Notes under the pieces: generated by a model | Told to the model about the DNA's origin: nothing | Seen by the model: the letters and a program-made list of their open reading frames with translations, nothing else | Database searches by the model: none | Made by a program: the position numbers and the translations under genes | Part shown: piece after piece, positions 4,732-61,999 of the stretch | How the letters are laid out: every line of letters begins with the position of its first letter | Position numbering within the stretch: position 1 is the first letter of the stretch | DNA from: an uncultured Gammaproteobacteria bacterium | GTDB taxonomy: Bacteria; Pseudomonadota; Gammaproteobacteria; DRJJ01 | Length of the DNA: 64,000 nucleotides | Assembly (NCBI GenBank): GCA_947258795.1 | Contig: CAMYJU010000009.1 | Coordinates: forward strand, 37,407 to 101,406 | Reading direction: 5' to 3'

Positions 4732-7700
4732 CTATTCTGATGCATCCGGCTGCTCACGGAAAGGTCTTTTAATAGTTCTGAATATACCCATTGGTAAGTC
4801 ACGGATACTAAATTGGGTCTCTCCTTCCGCTTCAGCTGTCTCGCGCTTGTCCAGCGCAGACACACACGGGTTTTGCTCACCTGTGCCTAAGTCACTATAC
4901 ATCAGAATCAAGGTTGCTGGACTGGCGAGTCCTGCGAGTATGCCTCCCAGGGTCCATTTATTACTAATCGATGTCCGCTCGTACACAGGTTCAGCCAAAG
5001 TACCACTTACCTTAGCCGGGTGTGCCAGGCTCACAAAACTCGGATTTTTCGGGGCCGGGTGGAATATGGCATTAATCTCCTCTGTATCGAGATTAAGCGT
5101 ACCACTACCGGCAACTGTAATGCGCATGGTATCTAACAATACTGAATCAGTGCTGACGATACCGTCCTTTATATCAAAATACCCCACGACACAGTTAGTA
5201 GTTGTGACCCTTTCCTGTTCCCAGGCCTGAGACAGCATGGTAGTCATGACATCTGCTGCCCACAAATCTATCTTGGTACCAGAGATCTTTCCAGGACCGG
5301 CTACGACATTAATCTCACCATTGCTACTGCTAAAAAGCTCATGCAGTGTAGCCCCTTCGCCTTTGAGATCCAGATCAAAATTGCCTTTTCCTTCAATCTG
5401 CTCTGTGATACCCAGTGACTGAAGCAACTGACCATGATCCAATTCCTCGCCATAACTCTTGAGATGAACTGTTGGGATCATATCTATCACATTGATATCC
5501 AATTGTGTAGTGATTGGTGAATCGAGCAGTCTTGCGCTAAATGGGTCTAGCTTCAGATGGCCATTGTTCAACGATGCCTGTAACACAAATTGGTCATATT
5601 TTACAGTACCGATAAAAAGCTGCTCTGCCTGTAGATTCAGGCTGACATCAACGACACGTAATAATTCAACAGGTATTTCATTATCAGGGAGTAATCGTTT
5701 CGGCTTCGCTGGATCTTGCGACTTGACTTTCTTGGCAAAGATATCTTGATAATATAATTTTTTGGATTTTAGGTCAGCCTCGATCAGTGTGCGCTGATCC
5801 TTAGTGGATATAGTCATATCGCCGGCAAGGTCAGTATTAGCGATCGTGCCGGTCAATGAGGATAGATGATAGCGTGGGGTATTACCTGATAATTGGCCCT
5901 TAATATGGTAGGGACCAATTCTCAATAAATTCTTTGCCAGTATCGGTTCAAGCGCTTCAAGCTGTTTTCCCCTTATATCAACATCAAGTTTAAGCCCCAT
6001 GTCTTTTAGTGGAGATTCGATAGATCCATTTGCTTTTACAAATGTTTCGGATACATCAAGACTCATGTCAATGGGGATGGATTTTGTTTCTGAAATCAAC
6101 TCTACCAAGCGCTCGGTCGTTAGCGCGAACCTAAAGGGGGTATCGTTTAATTTACCATGGGTAGTGATATTAAGCGGTTGCTGAGCTTTAGATTCCGCAG
6201 TCAATTTTGAAAAAATCACTTTGGGCTGCCTGGGCTTTTTGTTCTCGAAGTTGAGCGATGCTGTTCCACTCGATAGATGCATATCACCTTGCTCAAGCAA
6301 ATCACGCACTGTCAGGCCACGCCCTCGCATTCCTAATTTCAAATTACGAAAATAACCACTCACAATCGCATCATCGTTCCATGTTTTAGTCAGCTTAGCA
6401 ATATCGAGTTTTTTACTAGACAGGTTGATTGTGATTTGTTGAGACTGCTGTTGTAAAAGAAACTCAAGATCACCCGTGACAATGGCGCCTGGTATCGTGG
6501 CAGAGAAGGTAGAAATCCTTGATCGACTATGCCGAAACTTGCCGGAAAGACCGATATTAGCTACTGGAAAGGGTGCACCAAGCAGCTTGCCAAGCTGAAG
6601 ATCAAGATCAAACTGATAGCTTTCTGGAAACATAAATGGTAATTTCATATCCAGACGATCTATTTTTTGAGTTGGATCTTGCTTTTTAGTCGCCTTTGGA
6701 ATCCAGGCTGCTAGGTCCAGCATATTTACAGCTAGTTTTGCAGCTATGCGCGGCTTTGGATCAGATTGGCGAAATGATAGCTCACCCTTCACACTTGACT
6801 TGCCAACTTTCGCATCGGGAATAGCTAACTTATATGCATCCCTGTTACCCGTGATTTTCGCTGACAACTTATAGGCACCGACGGACGGGATCAGATGTGT
6901 GGACAGTAATGGCAATTTGCTAAGCTGCTTACCCTGAACGGATATATCCATATCAACACCATCACCTGTCAACGGGTGAAGTATCATACCCTCCCCTTCT
7001 AGGGTAGCATCAGTCATCGACATTGCCACTTTCACTGGCCATGGCTTGTCATTCAATAAATCATCCAAGCTACCGCCCTCTACGCTGGTTGTAATCACAT
7101 TGTCTGCATATTGACCTGACAAATTGACTAAAACAGGCTTTACACGTCCTGCCGTTAATTGCCCATCAGTAATATTAAATTGCAGATACGCTTGTTCAGC
7201 ATCCAGTTTAATATTGGTCTTACTAAGTATGATTTCATCTGCGTTTGCACTGATGTTGGCGGATGCTGTATATGGTCCTGCTGTGGGTAGCTGCATATCA
7301 ATAATATTACCAATGGATGCAAACTGTTTGCCTTGAATACTGATTTCCCCCTCGAGACGAGGTATTTCTCGTTTTCTGTCAATACTACCTTTAAACTCAG
7401 ATACCATATCGGCAACTGATATCGATAACCGATACGGCCATAATGATTTAGCGGACATCAAATCATTCAGAGGGTCACCAACTAACGCAATCGTTACAGG
7501 TTCCTCCCTATATCTCGCTTCCACCTGAATCAATACAGGTTCTGCTGCCAAAATCTTAGCGTCGACCTTCTTAATTGATAGTGAAAAATCTGATACAATA
7601 CTGCCACGATAGCTTAACTGTGAGTCGTATACAGTAATTGTTTCGAGATCAGGTATCGTGACGGCCTTGTCCTGATCACCGAATTGCCAGTTCCCTCTCC

Positions 7701-53643: not shown

Positions 53644-54123
53644 CTAGATGTATTTGACGTCGGTGATTTCCAGCTCGCGGATCCCGCCCGGGGCATCCAG
53701 CTGCACGACATCGTCAACGGACTTGCCGATCAGCACACGCGCGATCGGCGAACTGATCGAGATCTTGCCGTGCTTGATGTCGGCCTCGTCATCACCAACG
53801 ATCTGGTAGGTCAATTCAGTATCTTCATCGATATCCAGCAGTTCTACCGTGGCGCCGAAAATCACCTTGCCACCGGCATTCATCTTGGTTACATCAATGA
53901 CCTGGGCATGGGACAGCTTGCCTTCGATATCGGCTATACGCCCCTCGATAAAGCCCTGTTCCTCGCGTGCGGCATGATACTCGGCATTTTCTTTCAGATC
54001 ACCATGCTCACGCGCCTCGGCAATGGCCGCAATCACCTTAGGACGGCGCACGTTCTTCAGTTCCTTGAGTTCCTCACGAAGTCGTTCAGCACCCTGTGCC
54101 GTAATCGGTATTTTCCCGCTCAT
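53644..54123 (-). CDS. greA: Transcription elongation factor GreA
   Basis: [16 protein letters not shown] and SPIAR. Confidence 0.97.
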
Positions 54124-57100
54124 GCCGATTTCCCCTTGTTCAATAATTGGTGCAAATCCTGTAATGAATTGACTTCATCCAGATCCTGCTTCTGCAAGGC
54201 CATACAGGTCGCCCTGGCGCCGGCCATGGTCGTGGCATAGGTGACCTTGTGATTCAATGCCTCCCTGCGAATGGCGTATGAATCAGCAATAGCCTGTTTG
54301 CCTTCGGTCGTATTCACGATCAGTGCAATTTCCTCATTCTTGATCATATCCACAATATGCGGGCGGCCTTCGGCCACCTTGTTGATCAGGGTACAGTCAA
54401 CACCGGCCTCCTGGATAGACTTGCCTGTCCCTTTTGTGGCATAGATATCAAAACCGAGTTCGGCCAGGTTCCTGGCAATCTCGACGGCATCCTGTCTGTC
54501 ACTATCACGCACACTGACAAAGGCCTTGCCCTTGTCAGGCAGGGATACACCCGCACCCAGCAGGGATTTACCAAATGCCTCGGCAAAATCCCTGCCGACC
54601 CCCATGACCTCGCCGGTAGATTTCATTTCCGGACCGAGCAACGGGTCGACACCCGGGAATTTCACAAATGGGAATACGGATTCCTTGACCGTAAAATAGT
54701 CCAGCCTGTCCGGCGCAGTCGCGTTCTGCTGCGCCAGGCTCTGGCCTACCATGCAACGCGCGGCAATACGCGCCAATGGCAGGCCGGTGGTCTTCGACAC
54801 ATACGGTGCGGTACGTGATGCACGTGGATTGACCTCGAGAATATATATCGTATCGCCCTGGATCGCGAACTGGGCGTTCATCAGGCCGACCACCTTCAGT
54901 TCCAACGCATACTGGCGCATGTGTTCGCGTAACTGTTCCTGAATCTCTTCGCTCAGGGTATAAGGCGGTAGTGAACAGGCCGAATCACCGGAATGCACGC
55001 CGGCCTGCTCGATATGTTCCATGATGCCGCCGATCAGCACCTGTTCACCGTCACAGATTGCATCGACGTCGACTTCCACCGCGTCATCCAGAAACCGGTC
55101 CAGCAGTACTGGTGAATCATTCGATACCTGCACCGCCTCTTTCATATAGCGTTGCAGGCCTTCCTCGTCGAAAACGATTTCCATCGCCCGGCCACCCAGT
55201 ACATAGGACGGACGCACCACCAGCGGAAAACCGATCTCGCTGGCCGCCTGTATCGCCTGTTCCTCGGTACGCGCAGTGCGGTTCGGCGGTTGCAGGAAGC
55301 CGAGTTTTTCGACCAGCTGCTGGAAACGTTCACGGTCTTCGGCCAGGTCGATCGAATCCGGGCTGGTACCAATAATCTTCGCACCGGCCGCCTCGAGATC
55401 ACGCGCCAGTTTCAACGGCGTCTGGCCACCATACTGCACAATCACACCGGCCGGCTGTTCCAGCTCGATGATCTCCAGTACATCCTCCAGTGTCAGCGGT
55501 TCGAAGTACAGGCGATCCGAGGTATCGTAGTCGGTCGACACCGTTTCCGGGTTACAGTTGACCATGATGGTTTCGTAACCATCCTCACGCATGGCCAGTG
55601 CCGCATGCACACAGCAGTAATCAAACTCGATACCCTGACCGATTCGGTTCGGGCCACCACCGAGCACCATGATTTTCTGGCGGTCACTGGGCTGTGCCTC
55701 GCATTCCTGGTCATAACTCGAGTACATATAGGCGGTAGACGTCGCAAACTCGGCCGCACAGGTATCAACCCGTTTGTACACCGGCCTGACGCCGAGTGAC
55801 TGGCGATGTGTACGTACTTCCTGTTCTGTACATTGCAACAGCGTTGCGAGGCGATGATCGGAAAAACCCTTGCCCTTCAGTGCGCGCATGCCGGCCTCGT
55901 TCAGGTCGGACAACTGTTTGTTCGCCAACCCCTGTTCCTCGCGGATCAGGTCTTCGACCTGCACCAGGAACCACGGATCGATAGCGGTCAGTTGATGGGT
56001 TTCCTCGATGCTCATGCCGCTACGGAATGCATCACCAAGGTACCAGATGCGTTCGGCACCAGGCACCCGTAATTCCTTGGTCAGTAACTGGTTCGCCGAT
56101 TCCTGGGTGACATCGATCCTGGGGGTCAGCCCATCGACGCCGGTCTCGAGACCGCGTAACGCCTTTTGCAAGGATTCCTGAAAGTTTCTGCCGATTGCCA
56201 TCACCTCACCGACCGATTTCATTTGCGTGGTCAGGTGTGCATCGGCATGCGGGAATTTCTCGAACGTGAAACGCGGGACCTTGGTGACCACATAGTCGAT
56301 CGACGGCTCGAATGATGCCGGGGTTGCGCCACCGGTAATATCGTTCTGCAATTCATCCAGGGTGTAACCGACCGCGAGCTTGGCAGCGACCTTCGCAATC
56401 GGAAAGCCGGTGGCCTTGGAGGCCAGTGCGGATGAGCGCGACACACGCGGGTTCATCTCGATAATAATCATGCGGCCATCTTCGGGATTGATCGCGAACT
56501 GGACATTCGATCCACCGGTATCGACGCCGATCTCGCGCAATACCGCCAGCGAGGCGTTGCGCATGATCTGGTATTCCTTGTCGGTCAGGGTCTGCGCCGG
56601 CGCAACGGTAATCGAGTCGCCGGTATGCACACCCATCGGGTCGAAGTTTTCGATCGAACAGATAATGATGCAGTTGTCTTTATGGTCACGCACCACTTCC
56701 ATCTCGTACTCTTTCCAGCCGAGCGCGGATTCCTCGATCAGCAGTTCCGTGGTCGGTGACAGGTCCAGGCCACGTTCACAGATCTCGACAAACTCTTCCT
56801 TGTTATAGGCAATCCCGCCACCGCTACCACCCATAGTAAAGGACGGACGGATAATGGTCGGAAAGCCGATCGATGCCTGTACCTGTAACGCCACTTCCAT
56901 ACTGTGCGCAATCGCCGAACGTGGCATGTCCAGACCGATCTTGCGCATCGCCTGGCGGAACAGGTCACGGTCCTCGGCCTTGTCGATGGCTTCACGGGTT
57001 GCACCGATCATCTCGACACCGGATTTTTCCAGCACTCCCTCGCGTACCAGGTCCAGCGCACAGTTCAGTGCGGTCTGGCCACCCATGGTCGGCAACAGCA

Positions 57101-57353
57101 CATCCGGGTGCTCTTTTTCGATAATCCTGGCCACTGTCTGCCAGCGTATCGGTTCGATATAGGTCGCATCGGCCATCTCCGGATCGGTCATGATCGTGGC
57201 CGGGTTGGAGTTGACCAGGATGACGCGGTAACCCTCTTCACGCAGGGCCTTGCAGGCCTGTGCACCGGAGTAGTCAAATTCGCATGCCTGACCAATTACA
57301 ATTGGCCCGGCGCCGATAATCAGGATGGATTGGATGTCAGTTCTTTTTGGCAT
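54120..57353 (-). CDS. carB: Carbamoyl-phosphate synthase large subunit
   Basis: MPKRTDI...[10 protein letters not shown]; duplicated ATP-grasp halves. Confidence 0.99.
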
Positions 57354-57376
57354 ATAACTCTAACTATTTTCTGTTA

Positions 57377-57476
57377 CCCCCCTCTCCTCCCGGGAGAGGG
57401 TTGGGGTGAGGGGGTCAATAAGATAACTCGTCATATTTTATACCCTCATCCTAGCCTTCTCCCTGAGGGAGAAGGA
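57377..57476. repeat. Inverted pair of BoxC-like repeats
   Basis: CCCCTCTCC..GGGAGAGGGTTGGGGTGAGGGG (57377-57414) and an inverted copy (57443-57476). Confidence 0.8.
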
Positions 57477-57543: not shown

Positions 57544-58689
57544 CTACTCGCCCTGCTTACCCCGGTACTGCTGGATCATTTCAATAAACTGGTCAAACAA
57601 GGGCGCAACATCGTGCGGCCCGGGACTCGCCTCAGGATGCCCCTGAAAACTGAACGCCGGCACATCGCTGCGCGACACACCCTGCAACGAACCATCAAAC
57701 AATGAACGATGGGTAGCCTTCAGATTGTCAGGCAAACTCGCCTCGTCGACTGCAAAACCGTGGTTCTGGCTGCTGATCATGACCACGCCACTGGCCAGGT
57801 CCTGTACCGGATGGTTGGCACCGTGATGGCCGAATTTCATTTTCTTCGTGCTGGCGCCACTGGCCAGCGACAATAACTGGTGACCCAGACAGATACCGAA
57901 CACCGGCACCGCCGCGGCGAGGATCTCCTGGATCGCACTGATCGCGTAGTCACAGGGCTCCGGGTCCCCGGGTCCGTTGGACAGGAAAACGCCATCCGGC
58001 TGCATCGCCAGCACCTCGGCCGCCGGCGTCTGCGCCGGGACCACATGCACCTGGCAACCACGGTCTGCGAGCATGCGCAGGATATTGCGCTTCACACCAA
58101 AGTCGTAGGCTACCACACGCCAGGGGCGGTCCGCGCCGACATCCTGATGGCCGTGTTCCAGGGTCCAGCTACCCTGGTGCCAGTCATAGGCCTGCGCCGA
58201 GCTTACCTGTTTGGCCAGGTCCATACCCTGGAGGCCCGGGAAAGCACGCGCCGCGGCCAGTGCAGCGGCCTCGTCGATCTGGTCACCGGCAACGATACAA
58301 CCTGCCTGTGAGCCCTTTTCACGCAGGATACGGGTTAACCGGCGTGTGTCGATATCGCTGATGCCAACCAGCCGGTGTTCAGTCAGATAGTCAGACAGGG
58401 CTTGCTGGCTACGCCAGTTGCTGGTCAGCATCGGCAGGTCACGTATCACCAGGCCACCGGCATGGATACGATCGCTTTCCTCGTCTTCGGGGTTGGTGCC
58501 GACATTGCCGATATGCGGATAGGTCAGCGTCACGATCTGTTGACTGTAGGAAGGGTCGGTAAGGATTTCCTGATAACCGGTAATAGCGGTATTAAAAACC
58601 ACTTCACCGGTGGTTTCACCATCAATGCCTATGGACAAACCATGAAAAAGGCTGCCATCAGCCAGAGCAAGTAGCGCCGCATTGCGCAA
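57544..58689 (-). CDS. carA: Carbamoyl-phosphate synthase small subunit
   Basis: GEVVFNT, GICLGHQ and [10 protein letters not shown]; TTG start after GAGGAGG. Confidence 0.98.
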
Positions 58690-58712
58690 GGAAACCTCCT
58701 CATTCAGACACA

Positions 58713-58745
58713 CAAAAGCGGGAGAGCCCGATGGATCATCCCGCT
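58713..58745 (-). terminator. Attenuator-type hairpin in the carA leader
   Basis: AGCGGGA/TCCCGCT stem plus TTT directly before the carA RBS. Confidence 0.65.
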
Positions 58746-58893: not shown

Positions 58894-59244
58894 TCAGGTA
58901 TAGTACTCAGTAATTACCCATGACAAAGCCATGAGCAAGACTCCAAGTATTACAATCATATAAGCTACGAGAAAGGGGCGTTTGAACTTCTTGTCAAAAT
59001 GCTCATAGAATTCAAGCTGCCCGGTACGTTTGGCAAACCAACGTGATGCAAAAACTGAGATGTACTGAGGTAAACGCGCCATTTGAAAAAAAATACTGTC
59101 GTGTTCAAATTCATGTCCATATATGTACTTATCGATTTCTTTCATTCTCGTTCGTCCCAGTACAATCAGCATAACAAACGTAATCAGCCCACAGAGCATG
59201 GCTAAAATAAACGCCACTAACGATAGCAGTTCTGCTGTTTCCAT
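58894..59244 (-). CDS. Two-TM membrane protein, putative immunity paralog 2
   Basis: 116 aa; collinear with 59312..59662 (63/116 identical by manual count). Confidence 0.7.
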   Translation of the reverse strand: METAELLSLVAFILAMLCGLITFVMLIVLGRTRMKEIDKYIYGHEFEHDSIFFQMARLPQYISVFASRWFAKRTGQLEFYEHFDKKFKRPFLVAYMIVILGVLLMALSWVITEYYT

Positions 59245-59266
59245 ATATTAAAGCGGGTCAATCATA

Positions 59267-59295
59267 GGGTGCAGAATCCATTGGTTATTGCACCC
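59267..59295. repeat. REP-like hairpin between the immunity-like paralogs
   Basis: (TA)GGGTGCA...TGCACCC. Confidence 0.5.
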
Positions 59296-59311
59296 CGCAG
59301 GCTCTTGATAA

Positions 59312-59662
59312 TTACAAATAATACTTGTCAATAAACAAACCGCTTAGTAACAAAAAAAGACCTAATAACACAAACATAGATGCAAGAAGAAAAGGGCGTT
59401 TAAATTTCTTGTCAAAGTGCTCATACATATCAAGATGCCCAACAAGTCTGGCGTACCAGCGCGAAGCAAAAATATTTGCATATATCGGGAATCGGACAAG
59501 TTGATAGAAAATGCTATCGTTATCTACATTAAACCCATAATAGTATTTATCTACTTCTTTCATGCGGGTTCGACCAATTATGATGACCATCACCAAATAT
59601 ACAATCCCACAAATAATGAACGCAAAAAATGTAATCAACGATAACAGATCTGCAGTATTCAT
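59312..59662 (-). CDS. Two-TM membrane protein, putative immunity paralog 1
   Basis: Shares GRTRMKExDKY, FASRW and YEHFDKKFKRPFL with its neighbour; AT-rich. Confidence 0.7.
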   Translation of the reverse strand: MNTADLLSLITFFAFIICGIVYLVMVIIIGRTRMKEVDKYYYGFNVDNDSIFYQLVRFPIYANIFASRWYARLVGHLDMYEHFDKKFKRPFLLASMFVLLGLFLLLSGLFIDKYYL

Positions 59663-59740
59663 AAATCCATGTCATCCAGCCATAATAATAAAATATTTTC
59701 AGAAATGAGCCAGCTCAAGTCATAATGACTACTATGCGTA

Positions 59741-60772
59741 TCAGTATATAGACTCATATAAGACAGCACCCCTGTTTTTTCCAAACCCACCTCCCGCAGC
59801 CCCCCCGACATAGCCCCCTGCACCCGCCCCAACCAGAGCACACCAGAACAAGCTGCTACCACCTGATGGAAGACCAAAGACCAGATTGCAAGTAGCATAG
59901 CCCAGTGGAGCACCTACCCAACCTCCAAAAGCTGAACCAATAAGCGAACCACCAAGCCGTCCGCCCTGGACATATTTGCTTTTGGTGCATTCCTGTTCCC
60001 GGCCCGTGATACATGCCTTATGGATCAGCACTCCGCTTTGACCGATATCCAGCGCCACACCGGCATAACCAATGCGGCTGAGCAGCCTGCCATATTTGCC
60101 GACCCGGGCGTAGTTGTCGGCAAAATCGGGAATGGTTTGCACCTGACTCGGGAGCCGGTTCCACTGGTGCAGGATGCTTTTGGTGCTCAGGCCGAGGCTG
60201 TTTTTCAGGTTGCCGACCTGTAGGTTGGTGCCTGCCAATTGTTGCCCCACCATGCGCCTCAAAACCGCATTCATCTGGTCAAAAATGGCCTTGCGTTGTT
60301 GATAAAAGCGCTGCTGATTCAGTTTCCTGTTGCTGTTAAAGGTGTCCACATACAGGCGTTCGAGCCGTTTCAGCAATCCCTCCAGTCGTTTCTTATGATG
60401 ATTGAAAAACGTAGTGGAAATACCGATCGCCGTGCCCGAGTGGGCCAGGATATTGTTAATCAATTCATAATTCTCGGCGACGAAGCTTGCTTCTTTCGGG
60501 CTCAACTGCACCTGCATACGCTCGATATCCGCCGCCACTGCTGCCAGATCATATTCGAATGCGGTGCACACCGTCTGTCCGGGTGGGGTAACGACCACCA
60601 CCTGACCCGGCAGTACCGATGTTTGAATATGCTGGTTAACGCTCAGGAAGTGGTCTTTGGTGGCCGGGTCAGGGTTCTGGTACAGACTCGCAATCAGGCT
60701 GTCTATTGACTGGGCGCGTGTGACCGGATGAAAAAAGGCTTGATCGGGTACGCTCTTGATTGACTTGCTCAT
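59741..60772 (-). CDS. Putative membrane-targeting toxin (LysM-like N-terminus, Gly-zipper C-terminus)
   Basis: Clean 343 aa ORF. The N-terminus fits a LysM pattern and the C-terminus is a Gly-rich hydrophobic hairpin. Function is inferred. Confidence 0.6.
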   Translation of the reverse strand: MSKSIKSVPDQAFFHPVTRAQSIDSLIASLYQNPDPATKDHFLSVNQHIQTSVLPGQVVVVTPPGQTVCTAFEYDLAAVAADIERMQVQLSPKEASFVAENYELINNILAHSGTAIGISTTFFNHHKKRLEGLLKRLERLYVDTFNSNRKLNQQRFYQQRKAIFDQMNAVLRRMVGQQLAGTNLQVGNLKNSLGLSTKSILHQWNRLPSQVQTIPDFADNYARVGKYGRLLSRIGYAGVALDIGQSGVLIHKACITGREQECTKSKYVQGGRLGGSLIGSAFGGWVGAPLGYATCNLVFGLPSGGSSLFWCALVGAGAGGYVGGAAGGGFGKNRGAVLYESIY

Positions 60773-61050
60773 GGCACCTGTTCCTTGTGCTGATGTTCCA
60801 TTTTTTCCTGCTAATAATGATAGACAGGCGGCAAGATTTCAAGCTATCAACAAGCCAAAGTTACGTCAACATTCCACGACAGGCTCCAAGCTCTACAGAC
60901 TGGACCGCCAAAGTAGATCAGCCCTGTCGGCGCAATGCCCTGTTTATCTCGCCGAATCCCTTCGGGCTTCATTGTGAGTACGCTACGCTTTTAGCGTCAG
61001 TGCAATCGCACCTACGTATCCGGTTCACCGTTGCGTATCAGCGTACAGCA

Positions 61051-61999
<949 letters not shown>

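Follow-up and report, generated by a model that had tools for sequence, protein, structure and literature searches.

A putative type VI secretion effector-immunity cassette encoding a glycine-zipper toxin and two-transmembrane immunity-like proteins in an uncultured gammaproteobacterium

The stretch of DNA analyzed here (the window) comprises 64,000 nucleotides from the genome of an uncultured gammaproteobacterium (GenBank assembly GCA_947258795.1, contig CAMYJU010000009.1, positions 37,407 to 101,406) and harbors a cassette of three genes encoding one protein of 343 amino acids (aa) and two proteins of 116 aa. The cassette probably represents an orphan (auxiliary) effector-immunity module of a type VI secretion system (T6SS). 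Its 343-aa protein would be a cargo effector injected into the periplasm of a rival, where its stapled glycine-zipper helices would insert in the inner membrane and collapse the membrane potential, and the 116-aa proteins, each with two transmembrane (TM) segments, would block it in kin cells.

The open reading frames (ORFs) on the minus strand of the window follow the order dnaK, dnaJ, dapB, 343 aa, 116 aa, 116 aa, carA, and carB, the names of the flanking genes having been read off the translations and not from a library scan. The dapB and carA genes are normally adjacent in the gene order of E. coli and Pseudomonas. The three-gene insert between them had been noticed in the original prediction, made from the sequence of the window, and the ORFs were found there as described. 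The two 116-aa proteins are identical at 63 of 115 positions (55%, E 6e-51), in agreement with the 54% counted by hand in that prediction, and their description as AT-rich two-TM paralogs was also borne out. The GC content is 0.35-0.40 over positions 58900-59800, which hold both small genes and the 3' end of the effector gene, vs 0.53-0.66 in the flanks. Each small protein is almost entirely membrane-embedded by hydropathy, with hydrophobic segments at residues ~1-35 and 85-116 and a basic loop of ~55 residues (10-11 Lys and Arg) between them. In the single genome of the same genus that was compared (G001, the sister genome), the same island is also present between dapB and carA. The island of G001 contains an additional 132-aa ORF (L002:1374-1772) between dapB and the toxin gene, with a match to DUF6455 (E 5.8e-7), which is absent from the window. 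Pfam and NCBIfam scans of the three cassette proteins gave no model above cut-off, and the 116-aa proteins had no Pfam match even at E<=1.

A word-indexed search with the 343-aa protein returned only 14 relatives, and HMMER, run exhaustively against 1.84 billion cluster representatives, yielded 348 homologs at E<=1e-3, 62 of them at E<=1e-30. The family is thus widespread, without a curated Pfam or NCBIfam model, and its members are labeled 'hypothetical protein' in public records. It includes proteins of Pseudomonas veronii and other Pseudomonas, a LysM fusion of Halomonas, and proteins of Serratia marcescens, Photorhabdus, Marinomonas mediterranea, and many marine genera; the Marinomonas mediterranea member (P0146) carries a VgrG-end fragment. 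Members are also found on plasmids, namely a protein of Pantoea agglomerans pPAB02 and PAAR proteins of Pantoea deleyi and Yersinia pseudotuberculosis, three of the five plasmid matches being annotated as PAAR proteins. The 332-aa protein of pPAB02 aligned end-to-end with the family profile (hhalign probability 100%, E 8.6e-54). The family is patchily distributed, with three family-positive genomes in a class-level sample of 61 relatives. Among 401 genomes sampled evenly from one enterobacterial family, 55 matched at E<=1e-40, often with several copies. No paper naming or defining the family was found in the open-access literature on T6SS glycine-zipper, LysM, PAAR, and pore-forming effectors and on orphan immunity.

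The linkage of the family to type VI secretion was evident from gene fusions, from gene neighborhoods, and from co-occurrence. Many homologs are longer than the 343-aa protein and carry the whole module at their C-terminus; this module formed the C-terminal part in 25/25 longer homologs analyzed with Pfam. Their other parts contained PAAR in four proteins and weakly in one more, a full VgrG in two (with the domains Phage_GPD, Phage_base_V, and Gp5_trimer_C) and a weak DUF2345 match in one more, and a true LysM in two, with no Pfam match in 15. In an alignment of 91 sequences (A2), 19 members had PAAR and two had LysM, and three further PAAR fusions were identified at other loci (L048-L050). 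At two enterobacterial loci (L045 and L046), a stand-alone copy immediately follows hcp, and in three genomes (G251, G337, and G304) the toxin gene is situated 1.5-4 kb from tssC. TssC was detected in 10/10 host genomes of stand-alone copies vs 13/61 genomes of the class-level sample, and in 16 of 17 family-positive genomes vs 168 of 401 overall in one evenly drawn sample. As related genomes are not independent, these results are given as counts and not as a probability. In the genome of the window itself, contig C1 encodes Hcp, VgrG, and two adjacent copies of TssC, and PAAR is encoded on contig C31. The adjacent TssC (VipB)-type genes (C1, 35754-38439) scored 454 and 373 bits, and the same doubling occurs in several family host genomes. 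The effector contains no signal peptide, PAAR, VgrG, or Rhs domain, as had been stated in the original prediction, which left the delivery route unexplained; the latter part can now be revised. Such a protein fits a T6SS cargo effector, since relatives have this module joined to PAAR or VgrG or placed beside hcp and the genome possesses a T6SS.

The pairing of the toxin gene with small membrane protein genes was found to be conserved. The survey covered 19 stand-alone toxin loci, located with the 14-sequence alignment, from marine Gammaproteobacteria and metagenome-assembled genomes (MAGs), with genera including Litoribacillus, Psychromonas, Kangiella, Pseudoalteromonas, Endozoicomonas, Microbulbifer, Methylomonas, and Pokkaliibacter. 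In 17 of them, an iterated hidden Markov model detected a homolog of the 116-aa proteins immediately after the toxin gene; the two remaining loci were a 501-bp contig and the locus of the most distant toxin homolog (24% identity). The reading of the cassette as a toxin with an array of small membrane immunity genes, proposed from the window alone, therefore passed this comparative test, and both the PAAR fusions and the variable immunity arrays for which a neighborhood survey had been suggested were found. The homologs often formed arrays, which contained 2-4 copies, e.g., four in tandem in Kangiella and two in Pseudoalteromonas, and C-terminal fragments of the toxin were interleaved with immunity genes at L019 and L024 (Methylomonas and one Endozoicomonas locus). 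In the enterobacterial loci, the family members are followed by ORFs of 129-138 aa with the same N- and C-terminal TM layout. Because it is adjacent to the toxin gene, the first immunity-like gene is presumed from position to be the cognate one; the second is presumed to be a retained orphan, or an immunity gene of second specificity, which would act against a variant of a relative. The product of the second gene shares 82% identity with the immunity protein encoded nearest to carA in the sister genome.

Tertiary structure prediction of the effector with AlphaFold2 from 91 sequences gave a mean predicted local distance difference test score (pLDDT) of 79.5 and a predicted template modeling score of 0.60, an earlier model from 14 sequences having been poor (pLDDT 58). 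The N-terminus was modeled as a small domain with strands at residues 13-16 and 58-61 and helices at 23-30 and 36-45, at block pLDDT values of 89-96 (residues 11-50) and 90-91 (residues 51-70); the domain was seen only as part of the full-length model, and the fold searches used the whole model. The original prediction had noted a LysM-like pattern here. The effector showed no match to Pfam LysM (PF01476) at E<=1, a scan of the whole genome with PF01476 gave ten other sites with the effector locus not among them, and the N-terminal segments of the family reached no better than E 0.037 (two of 13 segments matching). When compared by hhalign with a set of nine LysM domains encoded in the same genome, the N-terminal profile of the family aligned over 46 columns at a probability of 89.4% (P 2e-6), the reversed control giving 0.2%; with a template of only nine sequences, this is a case of remote homology and not a proof. 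A profile search of the PDB gave as top match a 49-aa chain named 'Chitinase A' (E 0.58). Asn46 is invariant in 91/91 rows of the alignment and Gly56 is conserved in 89/91, these being the LysM-typical Asn and Gly-Gln positions. Owing to the profile alignment, the predicted fold, and the conserved positions, and despite the Pfam miss, the N-terminus could be designated a divergent LysM-like domain; the earlier assignment holds as remote homology and predicted fold and fails as Pfam LysM membership. It is kept even in the PAAR and VgrG fusions.

The C-terminus of the model consists of three long helices (residues 215-256, 259-299, and 306-342). Cys254 and Cys262 flank the first turn and Cys295 and Cys311 the second, with conservation in 89, 88, 84, and 83 of the 91 aligned members, respectively. 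Since these pairs flank the turns, they may form two disulfide staples in the oxidizing periplasm. The last 79 residues contain 29% Gly vs 6% elsewhere and 14 GxxxG motifs, a number reached by none of 2000 shuffles of those residues; the cysteines that flank the GxxxG hairpin pointed out previously are conserved in the family. Hydropathy analysis revealed no hydrophobic stretch at the N-terminus and hence no signal or leader peptide. Neither the Pfam and NCBIfam scans nor the fold search found an enzymatic domain in the effector. Fold searches of the whole model (Foldseek, VIA) returned generic helical matches only, with no colicin among them, and Pfam Colicin did not match; the channel domain of colicin E1 gave a weak match (E 1.1) over residues 214-250.

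Sequence variation among close homologs is concentrated at the C-terminal end. Residues 271-343 of the effector showed identities of 0.38-1.0 to four close homologs; the 30-residue blocks over residues 271-330 were mostly at 0.60-0.67, with one at 0.87, and the last block (331-343) ranged from 0.38 to 1.0. Most blocks upstream of residue 271 were at 0.77-0.97 for the three homologs of ~80% identity. Orphan toxin fragments elsewhere (contig C35 of the same genome, L019, and L024) cover exactly this C-terminal end. Contig C35 (bases 3-1216, locus L006) carries a second array without a full toxin, in the order partial immunity gene at the contig edge, 42-aa orphan toxin tip, 124-aa immunity gene, and frameshifted immunity gene. 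The array is followed by a 173-aa lipoprotein-like ORF on the opposite strand. The orphan tip shares 85% identity with that of the main toxin of the sister species vs 71% with the toxin of the window, and the immunity gene following it shares 83% with the toxin-adjacent immunity gene of the sister vs 67% with the first immunity-like gene of the window. Such a pattern is characteristic of polymorphic toxins in which the tip moves as a unit with its immunity gene, and it supports the assignment, made from position, of the first immunity-like gene of the window as cognate and of the second as a retained orphan. In total, five immunity-type genes occur in the genome of the window, of which one is truncated by the end of a contig and one is frameshifted, alongside at least one putative effector of this kind.

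It is conceivable, although we put it forward tentatively, that the family diversifies by swapping only the last ~40-160 residues, i.e., the stapled glycine-zipper helices, and that these move with the gene that follows, forming orphan modules, in the manner of C-terminal displacement in contact-dependent inhibition (CDI) and Rhs toxins but here on a stand-alone T6SS cargo effector of 340 aa. Self/non-self specificity would then be read wholly in the bilayer between the toxin hairpin and the two-TM protein, with the degenerate LysM positioning the toxin at the peptidoglycan. The cassette lies beside an IS91-type transposase in Psychromonas (L020:2369-3481) and beside a resolvase and a DarT-like gene in Endozoicomonas (L024:2806-4911), and these mobile and defense neighbors fit a horizontal spread of the cassette.

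In the proposed mechanism, the 343-aa protein would be made in the cytoplasm without a signal peptide, loaded as cargo on the Hcp/VgrG/PAAR needle of the single T6SS of the genome, and injected into the periplasm of neighboring Gram-negative cells. The C-terminal glycine-zipper helices (residues ~215-343), probably stapled by the two disulfides, would enter the inner membrane from the periplasmic side and dissipate the membrane potential, either by forming an ion-conducting pore or by causing a membrane defect. The LysM-like domain would probably hold the toxin at the peptidoglycan or help in loading. According to a review, VPA1263 depends on its N-terminal MIX and LysM domains for secretion by the T6SS. 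In the inner membrane of the producer, the two-TM proteins may neutralize incoming toxin by direct helix-helix contact with the variable tip.

Several observations weigh against this mechanism. Toxicity, secretion, and pore formation are inferred for the effector and for every sequence-verified relative alike, and hydropathy analysis showed a single clearly hydrophobic stretch in the effector (residues 296-326). One family-positive genome (G178) lacked TssC, its assembly being fragmented and giving partial matches only, and the co-occurrence counts overstate the support owing to the shared ancestry of the genomes. No T6SS gene is adjacent to the cassette in the window, and no T6SS gene or known adaptor was found among the 60 neighbor ORFs of the 19 stand-alone loci, which were unrelated housekeeping or mobile genes. 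Also, a ShlB-type two-partner-secretion transporter gene lies ~1 kb upstream of the toxin homolog at locus L018. These neighborhoods, along with weak sub-threshold Pfam matches to Bacteriocin_IIc and Gly-zipper_Omp, would suit the delivery of an antibacterial toxin by some means apart from the T6SS, e.g., bacteriocin-like lysis release or two-partner secretion. Such a route appears very unlikely in view of the PAAR/VgrG fusions and hcp adjacency of the same module, the co-occurrence with TssC, the lack of a signal or leader peptide, and the absence of an export or lysis gene among the ORFs between dapB and carA. At L018 (2962-4851 and 5924-6888), which is from a MAG, the toxin homolog is apparently split into pieces of 56 aa and 227 aa and lies downstream of the ShlB/POTRA transporter gene and a tetratricopeptide repeat (TPR) gene.

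Delivery by the T6SS would also be compatible with other modes of action. The glycine zipper of Agrobacterium Tde1 has been reported as a translocation device (PMC10240207), and the middle region of the effector, with its conserved LGLSTKS motif, is without an assigned function; the zipper could accordingly carry the helical middle across the inner membrane to a cytoplasmic target. We consider this unlikely, as no enzymatic domain was found, two-TM proteins with a ~55-residue loop fit neutralization inside the membrane, and the region that varies and is matched by the immunity genes is none other than the glycine-zipper tip. The remote LysM relationship of the N-terminus, the additional true LysM in two homologs, and the joining of LysM to a peptidoglycan hydrolase described for Va01435 (PMC4549250) would be in line with an effector acting on the cell wall or on lipid-linked precursors, for which the LysM-like domain serves in targeting and the helices merely as an anchor. 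Little probability is assigned to this explanation either; hydrolase and transferase domains were absent from the Pfam and NCBIfam results, the periplasmic toxicity of TseVF is reported to be unaffected by deletion of its LysM (PMC12861213), and the immunity proteins are membrane-embedded and not periplasmic inhibitors. That the genes might form no toxin system at all and encode mobile proteins of the membrane or envelope that serve in housekeeping or stress, as their position among housekeeping genes could suggest, is highly improbable. The island is AT-rich and patchily distributed (three of 61 class relatives), the arrays are variable with orphan C-terminal fragments and frameshifted copies, and the module is fused to T6SS spike proteins. 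The injection of a membrane-inserting cargo effector by the T6SS thus remains the preferred interpretation.

The toxin family belongs to a known kind of system, and two described effectors resemble it closely. Va03175 of Vibrio alginolyticus 12G01 is listed as 'LysM, Pore-forming', with a colicin-like region by HHpred, and has 320 aa and a mass of 34.2 kDa (PMC4549250). It is encoded outside the T6SS cluster, its T6SS2-dependent secretion was shown, and the small homologous immunity genes Va03170 and Va03180, with 65% identity, are each described as protective against it (PMC4549250). On the published description, Va03175 has the same architecture as the effector here, experimentally validated in that case, and its ~107 Da per residue indicate a Gly/Ala-rich protein like those of the toxin family; the comparison of Va03175 (UniProt Q1VCR9) with the family is by size, mass, and domain labels only. 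An internal ATG in 340-aa family members would give proteins of 321-322 aa and 34.5-35.0 kDa, which is close to Va03175 but not identical. In the arrangement reported for Va03175, the two immunity genes flank the effector, whereas both are downstream here.

Pse1 (WP_064704484.1) of Pantoea agglomerans pv. betae 4188 is described as a predicted pore-forming effector of at least 325 aa encoded directly downstream of hcp and followed by Psi1, an immunity gene for a protein with TM helices; fusions with PAAR or VgrG occur among its homologs, and its HHpred similarity to colicin B is given as 97.2% (PMC9796082). The family members at L045 and L046 share the layout reported for Pse1, in the order tssC-hcp-toxin-two-TM ORF, and the plasmid of the Pse1 strain, pPAB02, carries the 332-aa family member mentioned above. 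The VgrG-fused Pse1 homolog is presumably likewise from Marinomonas, as is P0146. As presented in its source, Pse1 is predicted and not experimental, and it is likened to the toxin family by layout and not by sequence. Its colicin B similarity was not reproduced for the family, for which the best colicin match was the E1 channel domain at E 1.1. The toxin family is probably the one to which Pse1 and Va03175 belong, and both serve as leads by analogy.

Ssp4 of Serratia marcescens Db10 is a stand-alone T6SS effector of ~331 aa, described as mostly helical with one small sheet, active only from the periplasm, and forming a cation-selective pore (PMC12669606). With its membrane immunity protein Sip4, it constitutes a small insertion in the ilv housekeeping operon, and its family is reported to span Enterobacterales, Pseudomonas, and marine bacteria (PMC12669606). 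Ssp4/Sip4 is a close functional analog of the proposed toxin action but of a different family; Sip4 possesses four TM helices and the immunity-like proteins here two. Photorhabdus, Kangiella, Endozoicomonas, and Psychromonas, all hosts of the toxin family, did not appear in Dataset EV2 of the Ssp4 study as available to us (PMC12669606). In the Serratia-like genome G642, a 331-aa ORF (6106-7101) and a 191-aa four-TM ORF, neither with a Pfam match, are inserted between ilvA and ilvY (L072:5531-7101), and their position, sizes, and four-TM neighbor suggest that they are the Ssp4/Sip4 orthologs. The family profile did not match this presumed Ssp4 ortholog (hhalign probability 0.13%), and a scan of G642 with the family profile found only another, unrelated locus and not the ilv insertion. 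The idea of equating P0195 (334 aa), the family member of Serratia marcescens, with Ssp4 was hence rejected, its orthologs of 88-90% identity in two genomes lying elsewhere and the ilv ORF being unrelated. These orthologs are placed beside a LysR gene and ato-like genes, with a two-TM ORF of 130-132 aa downstream.

The Tme effectors are described as having a C-terminal membrane-active domain, stand-alone or fused to PAAR or VgrG, toxic from the periplasm, with the small inner-membrane immunity protein Tmi, DUF1240-like with 3-6 TM helices, encoded downstream (PMC7046647; bioRxiv 10.64898/2026.10.08.757527). The cassette is similar to Tme/Tmi in its presumed membrane-active C-terminus, in the stand-alone and PAAR/VgrG-fused forms, and in the small membrane immunity gene downstream. 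Membership in Tme/Tmi was excluded because the Tme-defining DxxK motif, which is near-invariant in that group and precedes a TM helix and an Asp, is not conserved (the best column pair was present in only 14% of the 91 rows) and because the immunity proteins, with two TM segments and no DUF1240 Pfam match at E<=1, are not DUF1240-like. From their published descriptions, TseVF, Tke5, the DUF4225 effectors, T6EC1, and the effectors of a machine-learning preprint did not match the toxin family. Likeness to the CDI and Rhs polymorphic toxins, a comparison resting on general knowledge and on the account in PMC9796082, consists in the orphan C-terminal fragments with their own immunity gene, placed downstream of the main gene or apart from it, and in the co-variation of tip and immunity. 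The present family differs from these in being a ~340-aa cargo-type toxin without Rhs, CdiA, or a large delivery scaffold, the exchanged piece amounting to ~42-160 residues of transmembrane helices.

The coordinates of the cassette, of its parts, and of the flanking genes are listed in Table 1. The scanned region contained seven promoter-like sites vs 3.4 +/- 1.9 in shuffles, so that the site upstream of the effector gene is weak evidence for an effector promoter.

Table 1. Features of the cassette and its surroundings (positions in the window).
Feature	Position	Strand	Basis
carB-like ORF	54120-57353	-	reading of translation
carA-like ORF	57544-58713	-	reading of translation
Immunity-like gene 2, 116 aa, paralog	58894-59244	-	ORF, 55% identity to gene 1
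Immunity-like gene 1, 116 aa, two TM segments with basic loop between	59312-59662	-	ORF, hydropathy, conserved downstream position
Putative effector gene, 343 aa, stand-alone (cargo) form of T6SS-associated toxin module	59741-60772	-	ORF and homologs
Polymorphic tip, residues 271-343, most variable part among close homologs	59744-59962	-	block identities
Three long helices, residues 215-343, predicted glycine-zipper membrane-insertion region	59744-60130	-	model, composition, conservation
Basic helical middle, residues 62-214, conserved LGLSTKS motif at 193-199	60131-60589	-	
Divergent LysM-like beta-alpha-alpha-beta domain (predicted), residues 13-61	60590-60736	-	AlphaFold2 model, hhalign
Promoter-like -35/-10 pair TTGAAA-17-CATTAT, 42 nt upstream of effector start	60814-60842	-	consensus scan, 9/12 matches
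dapB-like ORF, 277 aa	61051-61884	-	reading of translation

Two further sequence features were observed around the cassette. A G+C-rich palindromic element of ~100 nt is present in two copies, in the carB/carA gap (57376-57470) and in the dnaJ/dapB gap (61899-61999), which are 84-86% identical over 49 and 31 nt; it looks like an intergenic repeat of the repetitive extragenic palindromic (REP) or miniature inverted-repeat transposable element (MITE) type. A 30-nt similarity of 77% identity between 59735-59764 and 61032-61061 overlaps the stop codons of the toxin gene and dapB, out of register with the stops, and is probably due to chance.

Pore-forming T6SS effectors are described as relatively little studied in comparison with the many enzymatic ones (PMC12669606). 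Defining the toxin family would let annotation pipelines recognize a common weapon-and-shield pair. Of most interest is the possible swapping of very short transmembrane toxin tips along with the two-TM immunity genes that match them; the small partners and the natural library of matched tips and immunity proteins would make this a compact system for specificity between transmembrane helices. For the genome at hand, the analysis indicates that an uncultured gammaproteobacterium with one T6SS carries such a putative effector together with immunity-type genes.

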